Positions 9,065 through 25,134 of a stretch of DNA of 25,134 nt are shown here, one piece after another. Where the stretch lies: IMG/VR virus record IMGVR_UViG_2737471840_000004, positions 1 through 25,134 of that record; one strand, written 5' to 3'. Position 1 is the stretch's first letter; every line of letters begins with the position of its first letter. Position numbers and translations under genes: made by a program. Under the pieces are notes generated by a model. It was not told the DNA's origin, ran no database searches, and saw only the letters and a program-made list of their open reading frames with translations. This stretch comes from a virus (lineage: Duplodnaviria; Heunggongvirae; Uroviricota; Caudoviricetes).

Positions 9065-12211
<3,147 letters not shown>

Positions 12212-12212
12212 G

Positions 12213-12240
12213 AAAAGCCCGGCGATCGGGCTTTTCTTTT
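12213..12240. terminator. bidirectional rho-independent terminator
   Basis: aaaa-gcccg-gcgat-cgggc-ttttctttt: 5-bp GC stem flanked by A-run and T-run, between convergent genes. Confidence 0.7.
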
Positions 12241-12256
12241 ATAATGGGTTCAATTT

Positions 12257-13255
12257 TTATCCGTTACCGCACGACGGTTTCTGCGTGATAAACGTTTCAA
12301 GCATCTTTTCCGCGATTGCCGACCAGGTGTGACACTGGACCTTTTCAGCATTTTTCACGCGATCAACGCGAGCAATAACCTCATCCCAATCAATCCGCGA
12401 CTTGATAACCATATGGTTCACCAACTCCAGGCGATCTGGCGGAAGGCAATCGGGCGGCGTTAATATCAACGCTCCACACATTGCCGCCTCAAGAACAGTT
12501 AATCCAAGGCTTTCGGGATGCGTAACGATAAAAACGTCACTCTTACGCAATTCAGCTGCAAATTCGGTTGCTGGTACCGGAGTCCGTCTGTATGGGGTTA
12601 CCGAAATATTCCCCAGCTCAATGGTAACCAATCCGTCATCGGTCAGCGTTCTGGCCTCATACGGAACGGTCAGGCGCTGAAGGTTCATAAGGATACTTAA
12701 GGAGTGATCAAACCCACTAACATCAAATGCCGCGTGGTCTACAAAAATACGCAGAACATCGTCTGTTTTGGTTTCCAGATGGAACAGCTCCTGATTCGCT
12801 GCCCATCCAACATGTTTGTTAAAACGATTATGACGCTCTAACCTGCCGGGATTATCCAGGTACCGCCAGGTATCATCGCGGACAGTAAAAGTAATATCGA
12901 CTGGTGCCGAATCCAGCATAGAACCGTCGTATACCTGGGCTACCCATCCAGTGAATCGACGACGCAGTTGCACGCCTATTTCCCTGGGCACCGTAGTAAA
13001 ATACCGCAATCCTGGCGCTAAAATGGCCTTCGCAGAACATGCGGTCGCAGCAGTCAACACAGCTTCAACATAATCCTCCGGGCTTTCGACGCCGGGGGAA
13101 TATGGACGATGGTATTGCAATGTTACCCCTGCCTCACTAAAGGCGCAGGCCAGGTTATAAGCCCACATTTCCGTATATGTTTTCACATCACTGATAGCTT
13201 CAAATTTTCGCCCAATGATCAGGATGTTCATCGGCTTTTCCTCATTCCATTGCAT
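12257..13255 (-). CDS. GT-B fold glycosyltransferase (GT4-like)
   Basis: 332-aa ORF; C-terminal HPESLGLTVLEAAMCGALILTP resembles the GT1/GT4 donor-binding signature; TAATG start/stop overlap with the DnaB gene. Confidence 0.75.
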   Translation of the reverse strand: MQWNEEKPMNILIIGRKFEAISDVKTYTEMWAYNLACAFSEAGVTLQYHRPYSPGVESPEDYVEAVLTAATACSAKAILAPGLRYFTTVPREIGVQLRRRFTGWVAQVYDGSMLDSAPVDITFTVRDDTWRYLDNPGRLERHNRFNKHVGWAANQELFHLETKTDDVLRIFVDHAAFDVSGFDHSLSILMNLQRLTVPYEARTLTDDGLVTIELGNISVTPYRRTPVPATEFAAELRKSDVFIVTHPESLGLTVLEAAMCGALILTPPDCLPPDRLELVNHMVIKSRIDWDEVIARVDRVKNAEKVQCHTWSAIAEKMLETFITQKPSCGNG

Positions 13256-14619
13256 TAATAATCCTCTTGCCAGTCAGCACCAGCATAGTTATCAAACCGT
13301 GAGTATTGGCCGTTAAAAGCCAATCTCACCGTGCCAATTGGGCCATTTCGTTGCTTTCCGATAATCACCTCGGCAATGCCCTTCATTTCGCTATCCGGGT
13401 GATAAACTTCGTCGCGATACAGAAACATGATCAGGTCTGCGTCCTGCTCAATTGCTCCTGATTCACGTAAATCTGAATTTACCGGTCGTTTGTCCGCACG
13501 CTGTTCAAGCGATCGATTAAGTTGAGACAATGCCACCACCGGTACTTGTAATTCCTTCGCCAAAGCCTTCAGTGAGCGAGAAATCTCGGCAATTTCCAGC
13601 GTTCGGTTATCTTGCAGCTCGGGGACGCGCATAAGTTGCAGGTAGTCGATCATAATCATGCTCAAACCACCATTTTCTTTATAAACACGACGAGCGCGGG
13701 AACGAAGCTCTGTAGGTGTCAGGGCGCTTGAGTCATCAATAAAAATATTCTGCTTGTCCAACAGAATCCCCATTGCGCCAGAAACCCGCGCCCAATCCTC
13801 GTCGTTAAGTTGCCCTGTTCGAATACGAGTCTGATCAACGCGTGCAAGAGAAGCCAGTGAGCGCATCATCAGCTGGTGGCTCGGCATCTCAAGGCTAAAA
13901 ACCAATACGGGCTTATCGTTACGGACTGCGGCATTTTCGACGAGATTCATCGCAAACGTAGTCTTCCCCATCGATGGGCGGGCGGCGACAATAATGAGAT
14001 CGGACGCCTGAAGTCCTGCTGTCTTCTTATTGAGATCGGTAAATCCGGTATCAAGCCCCGTTACACCATCATGCGGTCGCTGAAACAACTCTTCTATGCG
14101 AGATACCGTTGCATCGAGAATGCTGGCGATATCTTTTGGACCATTACCGCTCTTTTGTCGTTTTTCAGCTATTTCAAAAACGCGGCGCTCGGCCATATCC
14201 AGCAATTCATTGCTGCCCCTGCCATCCTGCGCATATCCAGCTTCAGCTATTTCATTTGCGACGGAAATCATTTCACGAACAACCGCGCGTTCACGAACGA
14301 TATCCGCATAAGCACAAATATTTGCCGCGCTGGGCGTGTTCTTTGACATCTCCGCAAGGTACGCAAAACCACCGGCGCGTTCTAATTTACCGTTCTGTTC
14401 AAGTGCTTCAGCAAGTGTTATCAAATCAATCGGTTTGCCATGACTTAATAACCTCTCCATCTCACTGAAAATTTCACGATGAGCACTGGTATAAAAATCA
14501 TCAGCAACTATACGATCTGCAACTTCATCCCAGCGGCAGTTATCAAGCATTAAGCCACCAAGTACAGCTTGTTCTGCACTAAGGGAGTTTGGCATGGATT
14601 CAAGAGGGGATGCAGACAT
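13255..14619 (-). CDS. dnaB: DnaB-family replicative DNA helicase
   Basis: Walker A ARPSMGKTTFAMNL; N-terminal SAEQAVLGGLMLD is DnaB-like; ATG 14619 preferred (GGAG upstream) over track GTG 14625. Confidence 0.9.
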   Translation of the reverse strand: MSASPLESMPNSLSAEQAVLGGLMLDNCRWDEVADRIVADDFYTSAHREIFSEMERLLSHGKPIDLITLAEALEQNGKLERAGGFAYLAEMSKNTPSAANICAYADIVRERAVVREMISVANEIAEAGYAQDGRGSNELLDMAERRVFEIAEKRQKSGNGPKDIASILDATVSRIEELFQRPHDGVTGLDTGFTDLNKKTAGLQASDLIIVAARPSMGKTTFAMNLVENAAVRNDKPVLVFSLEMPSHQLMMRSLASLARVDQTRIRTGQLNDEDWARVSGAMGILLDKQNIFIDDSSALTPTELRSRARRVYKENGGLSMIMIDYLQLMRVPELQDNRTLEIAEISRSLKALAKELQVPVVALSQLNRSLEQRADKRPVNSDLRESGAIEQDADLIMFLYRDEVYHPDSEMKGIAEVIIGKQRNGPIGTVRLAFNGQYSRFDNYAGADWQEDY

Positions 14620-14904
14620 TAGCACTCCACCCAGGCGTGCTGAATGTCAGATATAATCGGCATACTCAAATCACTCCTAACGATATGAGTCATCACCAGA
14701 AAATCAGGATTAATGCGCCGGACTCTTCCCGGCTGTCACACCGAATCGCCAGGATGGTGAGTCCCTGTATCCGCTATCCCTCCAACGGTGACTTGCACAT
14801 TCCGGCTACCTGGTTTGTTGCCTGAGCTAGGGGAAAAGGTAACCCCTTTAACGTCACCAGACCGCTAACGACGCATGTGCCAGACGCCGTGTTACAACCA
14901 AATA

Positions 14905-14980
14905 TGGTGGCCCCTACCGGACTTGAACCGGTGACCGTGCGATTATGAGTCGCCAGCTCTAACCACTGAGCTAAAGGGCC
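14905..14980 (-). tRNA. tRNA with CAU anticodon (Met, or Ile2 if lysidine-modified)
   Basis: Hand-folded 76-nt cloverleaf: GGCCCTT acceptor, GCTC/GAGC D-stem, anticodon loop CUCAUAA, TTCAAGT T-loop, encoded CCA. From memory it resembles ileX-type tRNA-Ile2. Confidence 0.85.
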
Positions 14981-14983
14981 GGA

Positions 14984-15091
14984 TTACTGTTTCCTAAGTG
15001 CTTCAATGGCGCTAACAATACCGCCTACAACTATGGCAACAATGATAATGAGAACAATTGGATACTTATCTGCAAAATCCCAGAAGCTCAT
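14984..15091 (-). CDS. mini membrane protein (35 aa)
   Basis: Hand translation MSFWDFADKYPIVLIIIVAIVVGGIVSAIEALRKQ; start overlaps the stop of the upstream mini-ORF; stop 3 nt before the tRNA. Confidence 0.4.
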   Translation of the reverse strand: MSFWDFADKYPIVLIIIVAIVVGGIVSAIEALRKQ

Positions 15092-15255
15092 CACTGATCC
15101 TTCGAGGCTGGTTTAAATATCGGCCATACCAATGTTACGGCTACTGCTACCAACGCCCCGTCGGATAAAACCGACAGGATTGTGCTGGTGAAATCCACCA
15201 GCACAGATAGCACGAGAAAAACCAAAGCCAGAATTAGACGTGCTTTTATAACCAT
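15091..15255 (-). CDS. mini membrane protein (54 aa)
   Basis: Hand translation MVIKARLILALVFLVLSVLVDFTSTILSVLSDGALVAVAVTLVWPIFKPASKDQ; ATG overlaps the TerB-like stop. Confidence 0.4.
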   Translation of the reverse strand: MVIKARLILALVFLVLSVLVDFTSTILSVLSDGALVAVAVTLVWPIFKPASKDQ

Positions 15256-15680
15256 CAGATATACTGTTCCAGTGGCAATTGAAGAGCCTGGGCAATTTTC
15301 TTCAATTGCTCCTGCTCTTCTGCCCCAATGCCATCCTGGTCAGCAATATCAATGCATAGGCACAGAACATCTACCGCATCATTAGTTCCAGACACGTCAG
15401 CCAGTTCACGTAAAGCCTGGGCATTCGCTCGGCGCGGCGAGGCTTCATATTGAGCGCGAATATTGGCGCTCATCTGGGCAATTTCACCGGAGAACGGCGC
15501 AAAGGCAGGAAGTGCTGCAATGGTTTTTTCCAATACTGCAATTTCTTTCGCATCGCAGGTGCCGTCAGAGTATGCAATGGAATATGCGCCCCAGACAGTC
15601 GCTTCCACCGCATCACGGTTTTCCATTTTCTTGACTCCGCCAGCCGCTTTGCGGAATTTCTTTTTGAGAATGCCGAGCAT
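15255..15680 (-). CDS. TerB-like domain protein
   Basis: SDGTCDAKEIAVLEKTI and IADQDGIGAEEQEQLKKIAQALQL match the paired TerB acidic motifs; alternative ATG at 15626 (GGAG upstream). Confidence 0.65.
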   Translation of the reverse strand: MLGILKKKFRKAAGGVKKMENRDAVEATVWGAYSIAYSDGTCDAKEIAVLEKTIAALPAFAPFSGEIAQMSANIRAQYEASPRRANAQALRELADVSGTNDAVDVLCLCIDIADQDGIGAEEQEQLKKIAQALQLPLEQYI

Positions 15681-16529
15681 TTATTAACCTCATTACTGGT
15701 TGGGAAATAAGGTTGCGGTGCCGGGTGCCTCCCGGTGTCCTTTGGCTGGTTATCCACCGTGGACGGGGAAATAAGGAGAAATAATGGACAGATATAACCA
15801 TTTCCCCGCGTGCGCTTAGCCGCATTCACCGCAACGGAAAGAGCATTCCTAGTGGACCTGTAGATTGGGATATGAACCCGTTACAGGAGAATGCTCTTAC
15901 CTGTTACGTGCTCCGTTTCGTGGAGCTAACGGCGGGTGATCGGGCCGCACCAGACTGGACTTATTTCAGCGTTATGCTCATGCCAGAGAATCAAACTGTG
16001 ATGGTCGGTGCTGAACTCCGACACAGGGTTGTAGCAAGCCCCGCAAAGCGCGCACTACTGTAGTTGCGGCACATCAGCCTGTGCATTCACCACAATGTTG
16101 AGAACACTGGTTGTCACGCTGCAACGCAACATTTATTCGTAGATTGGGATATGACCCCGTTACGCCAGTGTTCTCAACGTTGTAGTGCCGGTTACGGTTC
16201 CGGCCAGGCCTCTTCCTCAACGGGGTGTTCTCCATACGGACTACCGTTTATTGGTCGTTCCTGCGGTTTATGTTGTGAAGCCAGATGCTTATCTTCTGGT
16301 TGCTTCAAAGAGCTGCACTTCATCACAACGGTAAGAGCACTCGATGCATTTAAGCCAAGCCCCATAAGGGAGAATGCCCTTACCTGTTGTGTTGTGATGA
16401 CCGGTGCTGATCTCCGGCTTGCGGTTATTTCAGACTCTCACGGGCGTTTAATTGCCCCGCCGAACAGCTCTTTTCCGCAATAGCTGCAATGTCTTTCGCG
16501 CATCAGCCTGCGCATTCATCACAACGGTA

Positions 16530-16607
16530 AGGGTACTTCGTAGGGATTCGAACCCTCTGCCAAGCTCGGCGATCTCCGACGTCGCAAAATACCCTTACCT
16601 GTTGTGC
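16530..16607 (-). pseudogene. tRNA-like remnant (acceptor plus T-arm, no anticodon arm)
   Basis: Minus strand has GGTTCGAATCC T-loop and a TATTTTG/CGAAGTA acceptor-like pairing but only 27 nt where 41 are needed, and no CCA. Confidence 0.3.
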
Positions 16608-16683
16608 TGGTGCCGATTAACGGACTCGAACCGCTGACATCCTGCTTACAAGGCAGGCGCTCTACCAACTGAGCTAAACCGGC
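16608..16683 (-). tRNA. tRNA-Thr (anticodon UGU)
   Basis: Hand-folded 76-nt cloverleaf: GCCGGTT/AATCGGC acceptor, anticodon stem CCTGC/GCAGG, loop CUUGUAA, TTCGAGT T-loop, encoded CCA. Confidence 0.85.
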
Positions 16684-16685
16684 AT

Positions 16686-16761
16686 TGGCGATGGTGGATG
16701 GATTTGAACCATCGACCCGTTGATTAACAGTCAACCGCTCTAACCGCTGAGCTACACCATC
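16686..16761 (-). tRNA. tRNA-Asn (anticodon GUU)
   Basis: Hand-folded 76-nt cloverleaf: perfect GATGGTG/CACCATC acceptor, anticodon stem GTTGA/TCAAC, loop CUGUUAA, TTCAAAT T-loop, encoded CCA; 2 nt from tRNA-Thr. Confidence 0.85.
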
Positions 16762-17226
16762 ACTTGCCGGGTACGTCTCCGGCGAGGGCTTCCACCTCCG
16801 TATGCTTTTCGGCGCACCGCGCCCTGGCTGCAATTCGGTAACAGGGGATGCACAACCCTGGCTTCCAGCGTGATTAGCGCCTTCAGCATGACGGGATATA
16901 CCCGTAAATTCGTGGAACTGTACCCAAAGTGCTGTTAAGCACCGCTGTTACGCTGAAAAGAAAACGCAACAGGAAAGGACGCTGACCAACAGATGGCCCC
17001 TTCTCGTTCATCTGGTTAATCACACCAGCGCCCTTACCTGTTGTGCCTCCCCGTTCCCTAATACACAGACGGGGACACTCTGCGGTCGATTTTTTGACGG
17101 GGGACGACTCATACCCCGTGGCGTCTGGCTTCTTAGGCCGCTACCATCATCAGATCATCGTTTGCATTTACTTTAATGGTCAGTTTCTAAACCGCCGCAA
17201 AGTCGCTAACCATGACGAAAACCCTG

Positions 17227-17252
17227 AAAAAAACGCCCACCCGAAGATGGGC
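17227..17252 (-). terminator. rho-independent terminator on minus strand
   Basis: Minus strand GCCCATC-TTCG-GGTGGGC (7-bp stem with one G-U pair) followed by GTTTTTTT; in the plus sense the wobble becomes a C-A mismatch. Confidence 0.55.
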
Positions 17253-17409
17253 AAACTGGAAGCTCGTAACGCACTTCGGCGTTGCCACTTAGGCGCATGG
17301 TCAACCTGGCAACTCGGTGGTTTGTCTGGGAGGACTAGGCCCAGCCATGCTTACCGCCGCGCCTGTCGCGGCTAACAGCTAAATCGCTCTATAAATCACG
17401 ATTCATTGA

Positions 17410-17443
17410 GGCGATATTACACTAATAAATTTATTAGAGCAAT
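17410..17443 (-). promoter_or_regulatory. putative leftward promoter with palindromic operator
   Basis: Minus strand TTGCTC, 17 nt, TAATAT; the core motif is part of the perfect 16-bp palindrome CTAATAAATTTATTAG (17422-17437) and overlaps the last codons of the methyltransferase gene. Confidence 0.45.
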
Positions 17444-19698
17444 ATACCCAAAACGTCATGAGCTACACCTCGAGTGTCCCCCTTACAAGACACAGAACGT
17501 CTGGCAAAAAGAGGTTCCACTCTGAAGCCACTGTCATGATAAAGCTCTCTGATGTTTGGCGCGCCACTGTTAGTAATGAGAACCTTTGCACCTCGACGAT
17601 GAGCATCCGTCAACAGAGACACCAGGCGTTTTTGCTCTTCAAACTTAAAGTCATGACCGGAATAGTTCGTGAATCCCTCTGTATTTGGAAGCGGTTCATA
17701 CGGCGGATCGCAAAAGATGACATCTCCTTCTCCGGCAGCTTCAATCACCGCAGCAAAATCACCGCATACAAACTCAGACCGCCCTTCCGCACCGAGGAAG
17801 GCTTCCATCTCCTGTAATGGGAAATACGGAGTTTTATACTTCCCATAACCGACATTGAACTCACCGGCCTGGTTGTAACGCGTCAATCCGTTAAAACAAT
17901 GTCGGTTCAGGAACAAAAACGCCGCTGCGCGATGTAAATCATCATAGACTTGTTTGTTAAACGCATTCCGTACTGCCAGGTATCCTTCCTGTGTGTTGTA
18001 GTCCTGGAAGAAACGATGTGCCAGAGTGATAAGTGAATGCGCCTCGCGTTGCAGAGTCTTGTAAAAGTTAATCAGGTCAGCATTCACATCATTTAGCAGA
18101 TTTTCCTGGTATCCGGCATTCATGAAGACAGCTCCGCCACCAACGAAAGGTTCAATCAGGCGCTTCCCTTCTGGCAAATAGCGAAAGATTTGTTCCAGAA
18201 CACCAAATTTTCCACCAGCCCATTTGAATATGGACCGTTCGAATTCTGCCGCTGGTTTAACTTTTCGCTCTTTTGTTTCACTTCCTTCTTTCTGCCGACA
18301 TACGGCCTTAGTAATCCGATCGCCAATCCAGCGCATTACTGGTATTGCCATACTATTGCCGATCGCTTTGTAACGCGGTCCGTCAGCTGCAAGCATCGCG
18401 GCCTCTTCTTCGCTTAAATCTGGATAGTGATTGCGAAGATATGCCAGTTCATCTGAATTAACTTTTTTACGCTTTTCCGTCGGGATCAACGTATGCCCAT
18501 CAGGAAAACCTTGCAGCCTTTCACATTCGACAGGGGTAAGACGGCGGACAGCTACTTCTGCGTTTCTTACTTCATAGCAAACAGCTGTTGGATTTTTAGC
18601 CATTAGAGATGGTGAAGTATTCTTAGTTGCAGCATGTTGTGTACCGCTCATACGCTCAGGAAAAGCCAATGTAACAAGATGCTCATGGCTTTCTTGCTCA
18701 CGTGCCCGCAATGTACCATGCCCTTCTGACCAAAAACCTGCTCCTGTGCTGCTAAAAACGGCAAGGTCAGTGGCATCTTTAAAATCTCTTGCCTTTACTG
18801 TCGATGCGGTTTCATCGTCAATATATTCCCCAAATGCTGCCATCCTGAAAGCGTTTACGGCTTTCGTCGATTTCATACCGGGTGGCATGTCAGCGTGTAG
18901 GCATGGATTTAGGCTTTCGCCACTGATTGCAGCGCCATTTGCAATAATGGCGGAAGCGATTTCCTTCTTTTTTCGGCTCGGCGCAATATTCCGGCGCACG
19001 CCTTCGAACTCAAAAAGTACCGTTGCGGGATCGAGGTCTGTTCGAGCACTTGCGACAACAAACACGCGTCGGCGTCGTTGTGCCACTCCGAAGTATTGGG
19101 CATCAAGGATTCTCCAGGCCACCTTTCGCTGCGGTCCATAAATACAACCACACTGTGGCCACTTTGGAGCATGGCAACCGGTTTTGCCATCCCACCGCCA
19201 GAACGCGTTACTTTTTCCTGATTCAGGTCGATCACCTGGTTCAAATGGCGCATCTTCTCCAGCCAATCCGGCAAGGAAACATCCGAAGGCGTTATCTGCC
19301 GATGACAAAACTCCTGGGACATTTTCCCAGACGATAACTGTCGGTTTGAGAAATGACTCAGCCCGTTTGTCGTCAATTGCATTTGCAAGCTCCACATACT
19401 TTAAAGTTAGCGCGCCACGCTCATCATCAAGCCCACCACGTAATCCAGCGATACTGAATGCCTGACAAGGTGTTCCCCCGACGAGCACATCAGGGGATTC
19501 GATTTCCCCAGCCAGGACTTTTTTGGCAAGTTTTGTCATGTCGCCAAGGTTGGCGACATGGGGCCAGCGGTGCGCAAGAACGGCAGATGGAAAAGGCTCG
19601 ATTTCAGCAAACCACGCCGGACGCATACCCAACGGTTCCCAGGCAATACTCGCGGCTTCAATTCCACTGCAAACAGATCCATAGCACAGCTCTTTCAC
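17434..19698 (-). CDS. bifunctional DNA methyltransferase: N-terminal C5-cytosine MTase fused to C-terminal Dam-like N6-adenine MTase
   Basis: 754-aa ORF. N-terminal half has C5-MTase motifs ([48 protein letters not shown]); C-terminal ~270 aa has Dam-type FKWAGGK and DPPY. ATGA overlap with rdgC. Confidence 0.9.
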
Positions 19699-20600
19699 TG
19701 CTTAGCCTCTCCACCAAGGGCATTTACCAGAGCATCAACCAGGCACGAAATTTCACTGGTCAACAGGAAGAAATCTGCGTCCAGTCGCTGCGCTACATCT
19801 TCACTATCAATATCAGAGTTCTGATCAAGCAATTCATCCGCAAATTTGACGCTGGTAAGGCTGAAGTTATGGTCCAGTGTAAATTTAATGCGGTTCTGCC
19901 AGTCGAGTGCCAACTTAGTGACGAGCTTGCCAGCTTCCAGGTGTGTGGAAATTTCATCGCTTCCCAAATCCTGCTTTTTCACTCGGGCAATACCGCCATC
20001 CTCAAGCACTGCCTTAAGTTCTGCCGCATCCCCCATTTGAAATCCCTGTGGAGCACTACCATCACGTACCCAGTCGGTCAGCGTTAATTCAATGGGATTT
20101 TCAACACTCAGGGGAACAACAGGAAGAGAACCCAGAGACTTACGCATAAGCGCGAGCATATCCTCTGCCTGCCGCGCGCTGGCATTGATATAGATACGTT
20201 TAGTTGAACCGTCGTAGATCGCCTGGATAACAGAAAACTTTGAAAAAGCCCGTGGCAGAAGAGAATGCAGAACTTCGTCTTTCAGGGAGTCCTTCTCTGT
20301 TTTCTTCAGTTTACGCGCTTGTTCTTGCTCAAGTTTTTCAATTTTTTCTTGAATAGCTCGCTGGATAACCGGCGGGGGAAGAATTTTTGTTTCGCGCTTT
20401 GCTTCAACAAGGATAAAACCATTTCCATGCATAGCGATAACTTCGGAATTATCACCAAATGGAGATACAAAACCGAACTTGGCCATATCCTGACTACCGC
20501 ATGGCGTGAAAAGGATCATTTTCTTTTTATCTTCTAAGTCGGTCAGATCCGCCTCACGAGAAAGTTTATAAATAGTAATGTTTTTCCAGTGCTTAAACAT
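19695..20600 (-). CDS. rdgC: recombination-associated protein RdgC
   Basis: Collinear with RdgC as I recall it ([63 protein letters not shown]). True start taken as internal ATG 20598-20600; the track start at 20714 adds a non-conserved extension. Confidence 0.85.
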
Positions 20601-20877
20601 GTTGTAACCCTTGAATATCAACCACAGAAAGCTCGTCTTTGTAGAAAAAGGCCAGGTTGTGGCACCCCCTCGTTTGAGCGTATGAGCTGGGACCAATTTC
20701 GTTCTTCCAGACAAATGGCTTCAAATCCGTACGGCGAAGCATAAAAACGCGATTTGTTCCGCTCTGATTCCCAATGAGGCAAAAGCCTTCTTTCACCTTG
20801 ATAGCCTGCAAGTTGTCGAGTTCACCGCTGGTTACACGGCTATCGAACTCTTTGCGGCTTATTAGCTCCATCTGCAT
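20593..20877 (-). CDS. hypothetical protein (95 aa from ATG 20877)
   Basis: ORF in track from a TTG at 20949; ATG 20877 with GGAG 7 nt upstream preferred; overlaps the rdgC start by 8 nt. No motif recognised. Confidence 0.45.
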
Positions 20878-20935
20878 CTGACGACTCCAAACAAATGCCC
20901 ATTGAAGGGCGATGGCTGAATGGTACCGAAAATAC

Positions 20936-20966
20936 GACATAAAAAACAATATTTATTAGAGCAATT
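20936..20966 (-). promoter_or_regulatory. putative leftward promoter with ATTGCTCTAATAA motif
   Basis: Minus strand TTGCTC, 17 nt, TATGTC; near-identical over 20 bp to the 1602-1621 copy; heads the ORFan-rdgC-MTase operon. Confidence 0.4.
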
Positions 20967-21046
20967 TTGCAATAGTTGAACTCCATGTAGACCACAAACA
21001 ACCTGAGTTAAAATAACGAAAATCAGAGCAAATAATTGGTGATGAC

Positions 21047-21331
21047 GTGGCAAGTATTGCAACAAAAGACAGCATTTGTTCGGGGCACGGAGGATTCCCA
21101 TCCAGGCCTCCTGTAGAGAGTGAACCACTACTTAAAGTCAACGGAGTCGAAGTGTTAGTTGATGGTAAGCAATATGCACAGCATACCGATGGAAACAGTA
21201 CGCACGGTGGGCAAGCTATATCAACCAGGGCATGGTTTACCGTCAATGGTAAAGGGATCGTATGCGTTGGTGACCCTGTTTCATGCGGATCTACCGTAGC
21301 GTCCGGAGACGGCCTGGTTCAGGTAAGTTAG
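21047..21331 (+). CDS. PAAR-like / gp5.4-like spike-tip protein
   Basis: 94-aa ORF from GTG; CSGHGG, a second HGG, and VCVGDPVSCGSTVASGDGLVQV resemble PAAR-repeat cone proteins. Weak SD. Confidence 0.6.
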   Translation: MASIATKDSICSGHGGFPSRPPVESEPLLKVNGVEVLVDGKQYAQHTDGNSTHGGQAISTRAWFTVNGKGIVCVGDPVSCGSTVASGDGLVQVS

Positions 21332-21339
21332 GAGATATC

Positions 21340-22128
21340 ATGCTGGAAAAAGACTACCAGTTATCCGCATATAAAAAATTGGCCGCCGCCGGTGGGATGA
21401 AAACACTTGGTGCCATAACATCGGCACGAAACAGTGCTAACACAGCAAAACTGCTTGCAGAAGAATTGACCGGATTAATTCTGGATACAATTGTCTATCC
21501 CGACACTATTACCAGCTATGTTTCAACGATCAGAACAACCACAACCGGCTTAACGAACATTGGAGAACTGGCAACTAAGCACGCGGACCTGTTGGCTGGT
21601 TATGCAGATCTGTCAATGCTGCTTCAACTCGATATTGGTTGGGATGTTTACTGCCGTGCTAATGAGCGAGAAGTTTCAGAACTGCCGATCTCTATTGCCA
21701 TTGGTGATGTGAATATTACTAAATCGCTTGAGGACGCTGTTAACGCGCTTAATACATCAAGTTTAGTCGCTGCAATGGGGGAGATTAACCAGACCCTTAA
21801 CACTGGCTCAGGAAGCTCGCCAGGCTCTGGTTCAGGCGGCGGCACTGCCACTCCCCCACCAGCACTAACAGAAGAGCAAATTGAATCTCTGAAAGTAGCA
21901 ACTGAACAGTTTGGGGTTGTTTTCAACCAGACAACAGCGCCCACAACTGCGTTACAACAGCAGTATGAACGAGCGAATGAAAGCGCCAATGTAGCCATAA
22001 CTGCTTATAACCATGCTATCGGTACTGCGCTTGCGGAAGCATCAGCAAATAAGGCCAGCACAGCCAGCGCAGTTGCTGCTTTGGTTCCTGATTCTGTTCT
22101 TGATGAATTAAACAAAGCGGCACAGTAA
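21340..22128 (+). CDS. hypothetical protein with internal Gly/Ser/Pro linker
   Basis: Start set at ATG 21340 (AGGAG 7 nt upstream, 8 nt after the PAAR stop); track start 21283 overlaps the PAAR gene. Low-complexity GSGSSPGSGSGGGTATPPPA between two Ala/Thr-rich halves. Confidence 0.6.
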   Translation: MLEKDYQLSAYKKLAAAGGMKTLGAITSARNSANTAKLLAEELTGLILDTIVYPDTITSYVSTIRTTTTGLTNIGELATKHADLLAGYADLSMLLQLDIGWDVYCRANEREVSELPISIAIGDVNITKSLEDAVNALNTSSLVAAMGEINQTLNTGSGSSPGSGSGGGTATPPPALTEEQIESLKVATEQFGVVFNQTTAPTTALQQQYERANESANVAITAYNHAIGTALAEASANKASTASAVAALVPDSVLDELNKAAQ

Positions 22129-22167
22129 CAAAGGACTTCATTGATAATTTTTCTTCAGGAGGAAGAC

Positions 22168-22590
22168 ATGTCATTCTTTTCTACGTTAAAAACAGCTTTG
22201 TCTTTGAAGGAGAAACTTGCTGCTACTGGTGTTCTTGTTCTGATTTGCGCACTTGTTGGTGCCGGGTTTGCATGGGAACGTCATCAGCTAAAGCAAGCCT
22301 TGGATAAAATTGGCAGTCTTGATCAGGCTGTTAAGGAACGTGATAAGTCAATAATGGATCTTAACCAGACCATTGAGACGATGAACAAAGCAGAGCAACA
22401 TTTTCACAGCCAGGAAGTGAAAAATGAATCAGAACAAGCCAAATATGCTGACAGGCAAATGGAACGAAAAGCTGAAGTTCAGAAACAACTGGTTGCGGCG
22501 GGTAATGTTCGCCAGCGTATTCCTGCTGACACTCAGCGGTTGCTCCGGGAGTCGATCAGCGAATTTAACGCCGACGCCGACAAAGGTTAA
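22168..22590 (+). CDS. i-spanin (Rz-like)
   Basis: ATG 22168 with GGAGG upstream; one N-terminal transmembrane segment (AATGVLVLICALVGAGFAW) then a charged coiled-coil; the o-spanin is embedded in the +1 frame. Confidence 0.7.
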   Translation: MSFFSTLKTALSLKEKLAATGVLVLICALVGAGFAWERHQLKQALDKIGSLDQAVKERDKSIMDLNQTIETMNKAEQHFHSQEVKNESEQAKYADRQMERKAEVQKQLVAAGNVRQRIPADTQRLLRESISEFNADADKG

Positions 22591-22756
22591 CCACCCTGAC
22601 CCAAAAAGTGCATTCATGTGCAGGATGCCAGAGTTTAGCAGTGAATATTTTGATGATCTGCCAGCGTATATCCTCGATACAGAAACGATGCTGATGGGGA
22701 TTAACAGGAAGAATCGCAACGTTAATGATTACAACCGAGCTATTAGCGGTAACTAA
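22424..22756 (+). CDS. o-spanin (Rz1-like lipoprotein), overlapping the i-spanin gene
   Basis: Signal peptide with lipobox LLTLSGC, Pro-rich TPTPT after the Cys; starts inside the Rz-like gene in another frame and extends 166 nt past it; AGGAAG upstream of ATG 22424; internal starts possible. Confidence 0.6.
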   Translation: MNQNKPNMLTGKWNEKLKFRNNWLRRVMFASVFLLTLSGCSGSRSANLTPTPTKVNHPDPKSAFMCRMPEFSSEYFDDLPAYILDTETMLMGINRKNRNVNDYNRAISGN

Positions 22757-22767
22757 AAGGGATTTTT

Positions 22768-23148
22768 ATGTCTGATAAAGTAACAGTAAAGCAAACTATC
22801 AACAAAGCGACTTCAATCTACAAAATTGAGCAAATCACTGTTGGCAAGCCAGGATCTGAACAATACCGTCGTGCTTTCGAGCTTGCCGATCAGCTTGGTT
22901 TAAAACACCCGGATTGCATTGAGCATGTATTTCCGACCTATGCTGATGAGCAATGTACTCATGTTCTTACCGAAGAGGATTTTTTCAGCACTGAAGAACG
23001 AGAAGGCGTTGATCGCTGTATTGGTGTGATTTGCTCTTCAGTGAGTTATGAGTTATTCCCTAATGTCCATGAAGATGGTGGTATTGGATACCAATTCCTG
23101 TACGAAGGCGATGAGCTTAAATGTTATCAAGCATCGCCGGAATTTTAG
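22768..23148 (+). CDS. hypothetical protein
   Basis: 126-aa ORF with AGGGA 6 nt upstream; acidic, several Cys; last rightward gene before the apparent chromosomal junction. Confidence 0.5.
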   Translation: MSDKVTVKQTINKATSIYKIEQITVGKPGSEQYRRAFELADQLGLKHPDCIEHVFPTYADEQCTHVLTEEDFFSTEEREGVDRCIGVICSSVSYELFPNVHEDGGIGYQFLYEGDELKCYQASPEF

Positions 23149-23209
23149 GCTTGAAATTGATCATCGCATTCTCCATTCGTTTTGAGTTACAAGAACCCAA
23201 TGCTGGAGG

Positions 23210-23635
23210 TTACGGGAGGGAGTGCATAAACATGGGCTGTGGAAGTGCCCTTTTTGAGCAAATAAGGAAATCCTGAATTGTGTGGGAGAGTGTGTTCAGC
23301 GTGGTGTGCTTGGTCAAGACCGAATGGGCTACGGATTGAGAGGGCACGATGGGTGCATGCTGTCTGTCTGCTGATTGCAGTAAAATTAGTGGGATGACGC
23401 CACAACTCATAAAAAAAGGTTTAATTGGCGGACTGGAGTGCGTCTCGCTAATAAAACTGTATAAATCCGCGATCACCAGATGCGGTTTCCATTGCAAAAT
23501 ATGCTCTTTTGCTAACAGGAGATTATTGATTCCTGATACCAGAAATGAGGAGCTGAACCTGCCAGAATGATTAAGCAAGGCCTCTATCCCTGTGCGGGTA
23601 AAGTGGCACCGGTCAATCACTAAAATTTTAAGCAT
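23210..23635 (-). CDS. RcsA/LuxR-family N-terminal-like domain protein without HTH (possibly truncated)
   Basis: 141-aa ORF; N-terminus LKILVIDRCHFTRTGIEALL resembles the RcsA-type pseudo-receiver start; no C-terminal LuxR helix-turn-helix and no room for one before the next gene. Confidence 0.4.
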   Translation of the reverse strand: MLKILVIDRCHFTRTGIEALLNHSGRFSSSFLVSGINNLLLAKEHILQWKPHLVIADLYSFISETHSSPPIKPFFMSCGVIPLILLQSADRQHAPIVPSQSVAHSVLTKHTTLNTLSHTIQDFLICSKRALPQPMFMHSLP

Positions 23636-23830
23636 AAACGTTTCGCATTCAGAAGAGGGGCAATCGACTTTCTGGTTTCAGAAAGCCCTTCATCATAGAG
23701 AACTCCGATGAGTGCCAAATGCGGGAACTACGCCGCTAATTATGCTTAATTCTTGCTTTTAGCAGGCGGTGAATAAAAAGGTTGAAATTCATTTTCTTCC
23801 GGGCAAAAATGCCATTTCACACATTAGCTT

Positions 23831-23874
23831 TGCAGGACGACCTGCAAACGCTTCTTTCACCGGGGACGGCCCCA
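23831..23874 (+). promoter_or_regulatory. guanidine-II riboswitch (mini-ykkC) upstream of sugE/gdx
   Basis: Two hairpins with ACGR tetraloops: tgcagg-ACGA-cctgca (23831-23846) and gggg-ACGG-cccc (23862-23873), 15-nt linker, then GGAG and ATG at 23892. Confidence 0.6.
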
Positions 23875-23891
23875 TTGTTCTGGAGCCTGAT

Positions 23892-23938
23892 ATGTCCTGG
23901 ATCGTTTTATTAATTGCAGGTTTGCTCGAAGTTGTCTG
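23892..23938 (+). pseudogene. sugE: sugE/gdx 5' fragment, interrupted by IS insertion
   Basis: MSWIVLLIAGLLEVV matches the SugE/Gdx N-terminus; the frame then runs into the IS end GTAAGCG at 23938 where the conserved Trp codon would be. Confidence 0.7.
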
Positions 23939-25134
23939 TAAGCGTCAACGGAGCACCGTATTGACGCTTATTTATTGGTGAGTACTACGTTCCATGGCAG
24001 GAGTTCGTCAACTCGGTTGGAAGGCCATTCCGGCAGTACGCTCAGGATATGGCGCATATACGCTTCCGGATCGATACCGTTCAGACGGCAGGTGCCGATC
24101 AGCCCGTACAACAGTGCTCCACGCTCGCCGCCGTGATCGCTGCCAAAGAACATAAAGTTTTTCTTTCCGAGACAGACTGCACGAAGCGCTCTTTCCGCAG
24201 CATTATTATCCGCCTCCGCCAGACCGTCATCACTGTAATAACAGAGGGCATCCCACTGATTCAGTACATAGCTGAACGCTTCGCCCAGTCTGGATTTTTT
24301 CGACAGCGTACCATTCTTCTCCACCATCCATTCATGCAGCGACGTCAGTAACACTTTGCTTCGCTGCTGCCTGACGGCAAGACGCTCTGACTCCGGTAAT
24401 CCCCGTATTTCATCCTCGATGGCGTACAGTTCACTGATTCGCTTCAGGGCTTCTTCTGCCGTCGCACTTTTGCTGCTGATGTATACATCGTGGATTTTTC
24501 GCCGGGCATGGGCCCAGCACGCAACTTCTGTCAGTGCACCACCTTCACGTTCTGCACTGAACAACCTGTCGTAACCTGTGAACGCATCCGCCTGCAGGAT
24601 ACCCCGGAAGGGGCGGAGGTGTTGCTCCGGGTGTTTCCCCTGCCGGTTCGGCGAGTACGCGAACCAGACCGCTGGAGGAGATGACGAACCCACATTGCGA
24701 TCATCCCGGACATACGTCCAGATACGCCCTGTTTTCGCCTTTTTCTGACCCGGTGCCAGTACCTTTACCGGTGTGTCATCAGTGTGAACCTTGCGGGTGT
24801 TCATTACATAACGGTACAGGGCATCATTCACCGGTGTCATTAACTGGCAGCACGCGTCAACCCAGTTGGAGAGTAAGGCCCGGCTCAGTTCGACACCCTG
24901 GCGGGCAAAGATTTCACTCTGACGATACAGTGGCAGATGTTCGCAGTATTTTCCCGTTAACACGCGGGCAAGTAATCCGGGGCCCGCGATACCACGCTCT
25001 ATCGGGCGGGACGGCGCCGGTGCTTCAACAATACAGTCACATTTTGTACAGGCTTTTTTTACCCGTTCTGTGCGGATCACTTTCAGGGCACTGCTCACCA
25101 GTTCCAGCTGTTCAGCGCTGACTTCCCCCAGATA
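23938..25134. mobile_element. IS66-family insertion sequence, right end only (continues beyond right edge)
   Basis: Terminus begins GTAAGCGTCAACGG (IS66-family ends begin GTAA); contains a minus-strand IS66 transposase ORF whose stop lies 30 bp inside the end. Confidence 0.8.
23968..25134 (-). CDS. IS66-family transposase (TnpC), C-terminal portion
   Basis: Contains CWAHARRK and DDTPVKVLAPGQKKAKTGRIW; the frame stays open upstream of the track start (a GTG at 25098) to the window edge, so the N-terminus is outside the window. Confidence 0.9.
   Translation of the reverse strand, partial: YLGEVSAEQLELVSSALKVIRTERVKKACTKCDCIVEAPAPSRPIERGIAGPGLLARVLTGKYCEHLPLYRQSEIFARQGVELSRALLSNWVDACCQLMTPVNDALYRYVMNTRKVHTDDTPVKVLAPGQKKAKTGRIWTYVRDDRNVGSSSPPAVWFAYSPNRQGKHPEQHLRPFRGILQADAFTGYDRLFSAEREGGALTEVACWAHARRKIHDVYISSKSATAEEALKRISELYAIEDEIRGLPESERLAVRQQRSKVLLTSLHEWMVEKNGTLSKKSRLGEAFSYVLNQWDALCYYSDDGLAEADNNAAERALRAVCLGKKNFMFFGSDHGGERGALLYGLIGTCRLNGIDPEAYMRHILSVLPEWPSNRVDELLPWNVVLTNK

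Follow-up and report, generated by a model that had tools for sequence, protein, structure and literature searches.

The PAAR-type spike tip UpfC and its downstream partner UpfB in a P1-like phage-plasmid

The closest described counterpart of the locus studied here is that of coliphage P1, in which UpfC was seen by electron cryo-microscopy (cryo-EM) as a monomer on the trimer of the tail spike gp5, in a complex strikingly like gp5/gp5.4 of phage T4 minus the lysozyme domain (PLoS Pathog 2026, PMC12810830). The HHpred-based assignment of UpfC as the tip dates from 2022 (PMC9024508). The P1 cryo-EM study also described a "tripod" that is anchored to the cone of UpfC, and assigned it to UpfB (PMC12810830), the role of which has been termed unclear (PMC13611949). 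We analysed the upfC and upfB genes (21047–22128) in a 25134-nt stretch of DNA (the window), positions 1–25134 of the IMG/VR virus record IMGVR_UViG_2737471840_000004 (Caudoviricetes).

The window was collinear with P1 from 994 to 23134 at 98% identity, and a megablast search of the phage collection with 20900–23200 returned P1, P7, SJ46, RCS47 and relatives at 95–98% identity. On this sequence evidence the window was assigned to a P1-like phage-plasmid (Punavirus), and the P1 RefSeq annotation (NC_005856) supplied names for all genes of the region. P1 has the same genes in the same context (PDB 9VYI and 9VZK): UpfC was matched at 93 of 94 residues, gp5 was 100% and UpfB 90% identical. The window differed from P1 in its upfC-upfB allele, which was more diverged (synonymous divergence, dS, ~0.2) than the flanks, and in the plasmid replicon past upfA, which was replaced by an IS66-family insertion region.

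Phage T4 gp5.4 (PDB 4KU0, 5IV5; PAAR-repeat family PF05488) is, like UpfC, a single-domain protein of ~95 amino acids (aa) that caps a trimeric beta-helical spike as a monomer. T4 gp5 has a lysozyme domain that is absent from the gp5 spike of P1, and T4 has no UpfB homologue. UpfB-like genes were found in only 21 records of the phage collection (P1, P7, SJ46, RCS47, D6 and Cronobacter JK004), all of P1, P7, D6 or JK004 types, whereas UpfC-like tips were found in 295, mostly of T4-like phages; the tip is thus widespread, and UpfB is a partner that it has in one lineage. PAAR proteins of type VI secretion systems (T6SS) likewise cap a trimeric spike (VgrG or gp5) with a cone and have a dedicated partner gene directly downstream. 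In the window, by contrast, UpfC carries no extension at either terminus, Pfam and fold searches of UpfC and UpfB detected no toxin, Rhs or adaptor domain, and the context is a phage tail and no secretion system.

The upfC-upfB arrangement is already known: it is the one seen in textbook phage P1, annotated since 2004 and structurally assigned between 2022 and 2026. What is new here is the UpfB family with its range of sources, the pairing with a PAAR gene in 31 of 32 loci, the contiguity of the cluster in Vibrio, and an all-alpha two-domain model of UpfB. In our judgement it is quite probable that UpfC is a metal-stabilised puncturing point on gp5, that the co-translated UpfB forms a tripod on its cone, and that both aid envelope penetration in some conditions while being dispensable for laboratory plaques.

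The spike tip UpfC and the protein UpfB

The two genes and their parts were as follows.

21047..21331, plus strand: upfC, 94-aa monomeric PAAR-type spike tip with a GTG start (matches to PDB 9VYI_A, PHROG 281 and T4 gp5.4)
21330..21334, plus strand: Shine-Dalgarno sequence AGGAG of upfB, overlapping the upfC stop codon (read from the sequence)
21340..22128, plus strand: upfB, 262 aa (90% identical to P1 UpfB; PHROG 1559)
21340–21795, plus strand: UpfB N-terminal helical domain, aa 1–152
21796–21867, plus strand: UpfB Gly/Ser/Pro linker, aa 153–176
21868–22125, plus strand: UpfB C-terminal helical domain, aa 177–262

An earlier reading of the window from its sequence alone (the sequence-only reading) had placed a PAAR-like gene at 21047, and this was borne out: the GTG-started open reading frame (ORF) of 94 codons (21047–21331) matched the solved P1 UpfC (PDB 9VYI_A, E=1.7e-60) and PHROG 281 "PAAR motif" (E=2e-30). 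Pfam PAAR_motif (PF05488) was matched with 26.4 bits, slightly short of the curated threshold, 27 bits (E=8.5e-6). T4 gp5.4 (5IV5, 4KU0) was detected as a homologue by phmmer (E=8.6e-8, about 1e-7), and in the alignment H14, H46, H53 and C80 of UpfC stood over H14, H46, H56 and C83 of gp5.4, in the metal-site columns. These four residues were unchanged across four UpfC homologues (67–74% identity). The site of T4 gp5.4 consists of three His and one Cys, and the H14A mutation abolishes spike binding (PMC12407873). UpfC is accordingly predicted to have a tetrahedral three-His/one-Cys metal site at its apex. The cone fold, and its placing as a monomer on the spike trimer, were given by the 9VYI_A match plus the published cryo-EM position. 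Because the metal ligands and the match to a solved tip were both present, the PAAR assignment held at the two points where it might have failed, the zinc site and the cone fold, and UpfC is indeed a tip of the PAAR type.

The stop codon of upfC (TAG) was followed by GAGATATC and then by ATG 21340, which agrees with the 8-nt spacing given in the sequence-only reading. AGGAG at 21330–21334 would serve as the ribosome-binding site of ATG 21340, and since this Shine-Dalgarno sequence overlaps the upfC stop codon, translational coupling of upfC and upfB is suggested. The program-made list of ORFs started upfB at an in-frame upstream ATG (21283), giving 281 aa. The upstream ATG is also used in the P1 RefSeq entry of upfB (NC_005856, 63982–64827), which gives a protein of 281 aa and makes the gene overlap upfC by 49 nt. 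All homologues, down to 16% identity and including those of Vibrio (~20%) and Photobacterium, began at ML(D/E/N), corresponding to ATG 21340. The start at ATG 21340 is therefore preferable, and the P1 upfB of RefSeq probably begins 19 codons too early.

UpfB had been described as two Ala/Thr-rich halves joined by a Gly/Ser/Pro linker, and its composition agreed with this: Ala made up 15% and Thr 11% of the protein (12 and 11% in the N half, 22 and 10% in the C half), and residues 153–176 (LNTGSGSSPGSGSGGGTATPPPAL) were 67% Gly/Ser/Pro. The label "ORFan" given to it was wrong. UpfB matched PHROG 1559 with E=4.6e-136 (residues 1–262 on profile positions 1–263), and a profile search of 1.84 billion protein representatives found 87 members, counted at 50% identity clustering, 33 of them at E<=1e-30. 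Full-length members among these 87 representatives were 236–265 aa long and aligned end to end, with no domain fusions. With a word-indexed search, 51 relatives of 43% identity or more were obtained, from Escherichia, Salmonella, Enterobacter and Citrobacter; their longest contigs measured up to ~135 kb, many of them 90–100 kb. Cluster members and the plasmid collection gave access to the distant branch, named members of which came from plasmids of Vibrio alginolyticus and V. diabolicus, and from Thaumasiovibrio, Plesiomonas and Enterobacter. A distant query (P0121) used alone gave no match in viral_contigs, genome_contigs or the phage collection. All members with an identifiable source were located in P1-like phages or phage-plasmids of Enterobacterales or Vibrionales.

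An AlphaFold2 monomer model of UpfB, built with 20 homologues, was confident and all-alpha (predicted local distance difference test, pLDDT, 82; predicted template-modelling score, pTM, 0.76), with residues 158–169 disordered. The layout of two domains plus a linker was common to the family, the linkers being of 7–26 residues. Mean identity across the family was 30% in the N domain and 24% in the C domain; conservation was highest in the first 25 residues and in the segment IGWDVY, and variability was highest in the C domain. This pattern fits an N-terminal domain that docks and a C domain that is more exposed.

UpfB gave nothing above noise against Pfam. Its model had no match below E=0.008 in BFVD and no specific fold relative; fold matches to membrane-active bundles were non-specific. 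No transmembrane segment was found in UpfB, the highest 19-residue Kyte-Doolittle mean being 0.97 and the net charge −13. A tail fibre or Tfa-type assembly protein was considered and rejected: the model was all-helical, Pfam gave no fibre or Tfa match, and tail-fibre matches in BFVD had E>=0.2 and TM scores <=0.28. A holin, antiholin or spanin was likewise rejected, there being no membrane features and no match to a lysis PHROG; the spanin PHROGs matched the two genes downstream of upfB, not UpfB. From the all-helical model and the absent membrane features it is therefore concluded that UpfB is not a fibre, fibre chaperone, holin or spanin.

Pairing of the PAAR and UpfB genes and the gap to the spike gene

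Three features define the distance between spike and tip genes in the window.

10570..11586, plus strand: P1 gene 6, trimeric baseplate hub bearing the spike (99.4% identical to P1 gp6)
11579..12211, plus strand: P1 gene 5, trimeric tail spike with OB-fold and beta-helix and without a lysozyme domain (PDB 9VZK chain q "Gp5", 100% over 210 aa)
12257..20949, minus strand: intervening block, mostly leftward (gene content and order as in P1 NC_005856)

In the cryo-EM work on P1, the product of gene 6 was named as the hub (PMC12810830); gp5 matched Pfam Phage_base_V weakly (21 bits). The plus-strand genes up to 12211 were ordered 26, 25, 7, 24, 6 and 5. They were followed by the mostly leftward dbn, ban, trnI, tciCBA, trnT, trnN, dmt, hrdC and uhr, with upl and plp on the plus strand between tciCBA and trnT. 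Between this block and plus-strand upfC, upfB, ppfA, mlp and upfA lay a divergent intergenic region that contained Odmt, an operator of C1.

The spike gene had been said to end at 12211 and the PAAR gene to start at 21047, which was correct and leaves 8,835 nt between them. The claim that a whole leftward replication/tRNA block fills this interval stood in part: a DnaB-like helicase (ban), a methyltransferase (dmt), an RdgC homologue (hrdC) and three tRNA genes were all on the minus strand, but the block was broken up by two short plus-strand ORFs, upl and plp. The tRNA gene at 14905–14980 (minus strand) was called tRNA-Met with anticodon CAT by ARAGORN, and is annotated in P1 as trnI, tRNA-Ile2.

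Homologues of upfB lay directly after a 94-aa PAAR gene in 31 of 32 related loci (L001–L031). In each of the 29 loci L002–L030, a 94-aa UpfC homologue (56–74% identical) ended 2 to ~40 nt before an UpfB homologue (25–47% identical). On the Vibrio diabolicus plasmid NZ_CP014093 (L031, 6956–9756), genes for a hub, a spike, a PAAR protein and an UpfB-like protein were contiguous on one strand, the gp6-like hub and gp5-like spike being found by tblastn with E=1e-56 and E=1e-36, respectively. Three Salmonella- and metagenome-derived loci (L002–L004) and L030 had a co-directional block of 3.4–4.1 kb between gp5 and PAAR genes, which in L002–L004 contained RdgC and methylase genes. The Photobacterium damselae plasmid NZ_CP090491 (L032, 3778–9750), likewise from a P1-like phage-plasmid of Vibrionaceae, also had hub, spike, PAAR and UpfB-like genes, but carried a 2-kb block, including an opposite-strand methyltransferase gene, between spike and PAAR genes.

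The simplest reading of these arrangements is that hub, spike, tip and UpfB genes were ancestrally one cluster. Because they are contiguous in the Vibrio phage-plasmid, the 8.8-kb gap of P1 is probably derived, genes for replication, methylation and tRNAs having been inserted in this lineage. Most simply, the site between spike and tip would have come to receive cargo for replication and methylation, which amounts to 8.8 kb in P1. The gap between the spike gene and the PAAR gene is without mechanistic meaning.

A proposed role of UpfB at the spike tip

The following mechanism is proposed. UpfC, a single-copy cone held by its predicted tetrahedral metal site, sits as a cap where the beta-helix of the gp5 trimer ends bluntly, as published for P1, and would be the sharp point driven through the outer membrane on sheath contraction. 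UpfB, an acidic protein of two domains and a flexible linker with an all-alpha model, would be translated from the same message as upfC. It would attach to the faces of this cone and stand past the tip as a tripod with three legs. As the tripod would lie beyond the spike tip, UpfB would be the first part of the virion to meet the cell envelope. In the sequence-only reading, cargo or a fibre-like component was offered as what a two-domain protein beside a PAAR gene sometimes is; a component associated with the tip agrees with the cryo-EM tripod assignment (PMC12810830). The term "fibre-like" was right only loosely, UpfB being a helical bundle.

We infer that the tripod density is UpfB from the medium-resolution map, the AlphaFold3 fit and the synteny found here. 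The tripod would consist of three copies or of three trimers, and UpfB may help to penetrate or sense the envelope. Both genes have been deleted in frame (PMC9024508), and by CRISPR interference knockdown and deletion both genes are non-essential for plaque formation (PMC10695390).

Several points weigh against UpfB as a tripod that helps penetration. The tripod "could not be resolved" in the cryo-EM study, where an AlphaFold3 trimer fits a medium-resolution map (PMC12810830), and its copy number was given there as "three trimeric" and elsewhere as "three copies" on UpfC (PMC13611949). An independent preprint on the P1 baseplate does not mention UpfB. The main text of a 2022 study of P1 virions by liquid chromatography and tandem mass spectrometry (LC-MS/MS) does not contain "UpfB", and UpfC, gp5 and gp26 were also missed (PMC9024508). 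Neither gene has a plaque phenotype. No relative of UpfB was found among PDB sequences, in which no UpfB structure is deposited. In the Photobacterium plasmid, two ORFs lay between the PAAR gene and the UpfB homologue, a first of 168 aa and a second of 169 aa whose C-terminal half is hydrophobic. Adjacency shows functional linkage, not physical binding, and all fetched loci were related phage-plasmids and not fully independent, so that they amount to comparative support and do not prove binding.

Other explanations of UpfB were weighed against this evidence. It could be a non-virion assembly chaperone or adaptor that helps UpfC fold or load on gp5 and then leaves, the tripod density being something else; such a protein would be comparable to the adaptors encoded beside T6SS PAAR genes. 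Tight gene pairing and probable translational coupling are equally expected of a dedicated chaperone, upfB is non-essential, and the silence of the LC-MS/MS main text and the dependence of the tripod on an AlphaFold3 fit to medium-resolution density would be accounted for. However, the predicted UpfB oligomer was reported to fit the density on the tip, the same LC-MS/MS study missed UpfC, gp5 and gp26 as well, and UpfB is unlike any known T6SS adaptor family. We regard a chaperone as unlikely. The position at the extreme tip, together with a flexible interdomain linker kept across the family, would also suit a delivered cargo, released from the tip into the envelope or periplasm, whose helical bundles act on the membrane by insertion or as a pore; UpfB would then be an effector and not a passive leg. 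The protein is a poor candidate for this, with no hydrophobic segment (Kyte-Doolittle maximum 0.97 over 19 residues), a net charge of −13, no significant match in BFVD and no plaque phenotype, and delivery as cargo is quite improbable.

It is very improbable that UpfB regulates or assists the downstream spanins as part of a lysis cassette, its adjacency to the PAAR gene being incidental. The Rz/Rz1-like spanin genes ppfA and mlp do lie immediately 3′ of upfB, an amidase gene was located ~0.6 kb downstream in the Vibrio plasmid, and the 169-aa Photobacterium ORF with its hydrophobic C-terminal half lies between the PAAR and UpfB genes. But the constant neighbour of upfB was the PAAR gene, while the lysis genes varied between lineages; UpfB has no transmembrane segment, and it is assigned to the tip by cryo-EM. 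The P1 genes lydA, lydB and lyz (holin, antiholin and endolysin) are elsewhere in the genome, which also counts against a lysis cassette here.

A broader version of the tripod reading seems doubtful: UpfB might be a distinct class of spike-tip appendage of all P1-like phage-plasmids in Enterobacterales and Vibrionales, in which the N domain docks on the PAAR cone and the faster-evolving, tethered C domain engages or inserts in the envelope, affecting penetration or host range. Its support consists of the gene pairing, the pattern of identity (30% in the N domain, 24% in the C domain) and the non-specific fold matches to membrane-active bundles. A parallel would be T4 gp5.4, the importance of which is confined to hosts whose lipopolysaccharide is truncated.

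Divergence, flanking genes and meaning for P1-like phage-plasmids

Against reference P1, dS was 0.22 for upfC and 0.18 for upfB, but 0.007–0.045 for the flanking gp5, gp6, ppfA and mlp genes and 0.098 for upfA. With dS of ~0.2 in both genes between flanks of low dS, it is therefore suggested that the upfC-upfB pair was exchanged as a unit, by allelic exchange among P1-like plasmids. The dN/dS ratio (nonsynonymous to synonymous divergence) was 0.02 for upfC and 0.25 for upfB, indicating purifying selection on both and thus that they are real, constrained genes. UpfB differed from P1 UpfB by 25 substitutions, grouped at residues 124–126, in the linker and at residues 179–217. Nucleotide identity between 21047–22128 of the window and 12148–13229 of locus L001 dipped to 79% at 21850–21949. 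Near-identical UpfB variants from P1-like contigs of E. coli and E. fergusonii (P0005, P0008, P0009 and P0012) had in-frame deletions of 6–21 residues just before the linker, within it or in the first C-domain helix. The region of the linker and first C-domain helix therefore tolerates changes in length.

A scan of 20700–23300 for sigma-70 promoters and terminators was at chance level, with 3 promoter-like sites against 3.7 expected, and the sole plus-strand promoter-like site before upfC would leave no space for the upfC ribosome-binding site. Comparison by eye of the region upstream of upfC with the P1 late promoter LP23 gave no convincing match. In the intergenic region (20950–21046), only the C1-controlled Pdmt with Odmt, for the leftward operon, is annotated, and no upfC-upfB promoter.

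The features flanking the pair were as follows.

20949..20965, minus strand: C1 repressor operator Odmt (Op68) between divergent uhr and upfC; reverse complement ATTGCTCTAATAAATAT, position matching the P1-annotated Odmt
22168..22590, plus strand: ppfA, Rz-like inner-membrane spanin for lysis (PHROG 89, E=1.3e-24; counterpart of P1 ppfA)
22424..22756, plus strand: mlp, Rz1-like outer-membrane lipoprotein spanin (PHROG 30284, E=2.2e-77; counterpart of P1 mlp)
22768..23148, plus strand: upfA (PHROG 1453, E=7e-57), with its 3′ end replaced, P1 homology ending at 23134

The start of mlp lay inside ppfA in another frame, and mlp extended 166 nt beyond the ppfA stop. Collinearity with P1 ended within the last codons of upfA, at 23134. 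Beyond this point, in place of the oriR, repA and par of P1, were a minus-strand ORF of 141 aa (23210–23635) with no Pfam match, a Guanidine-II riboswitch (23829–23873; 47.2 bits, gathering score 32) and, on the minus strand, an ISEc23/IS66-family transposase gene (23968–25098). The best-matching plasmid has sugE annotated next to the IS66 element. The region 23134–25134 has the look of accessory genes that were inserted at the border of the plasmid replicon.

P1 is much used for transduction, and resistance genes are spread by P1-like phage-plasmids, so the way in which the tail tip crosses the envelope is of practical interest. As the tip and its tripod partner had already been reported between 2022 and 2026, the present finding adds no new biology and its residual value is comparative. 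The conserved PAAR-UpfB module, found as far as Vibrio and Photobacterium, gives independent support for the tentative cryo-EM assignment of the tripod.

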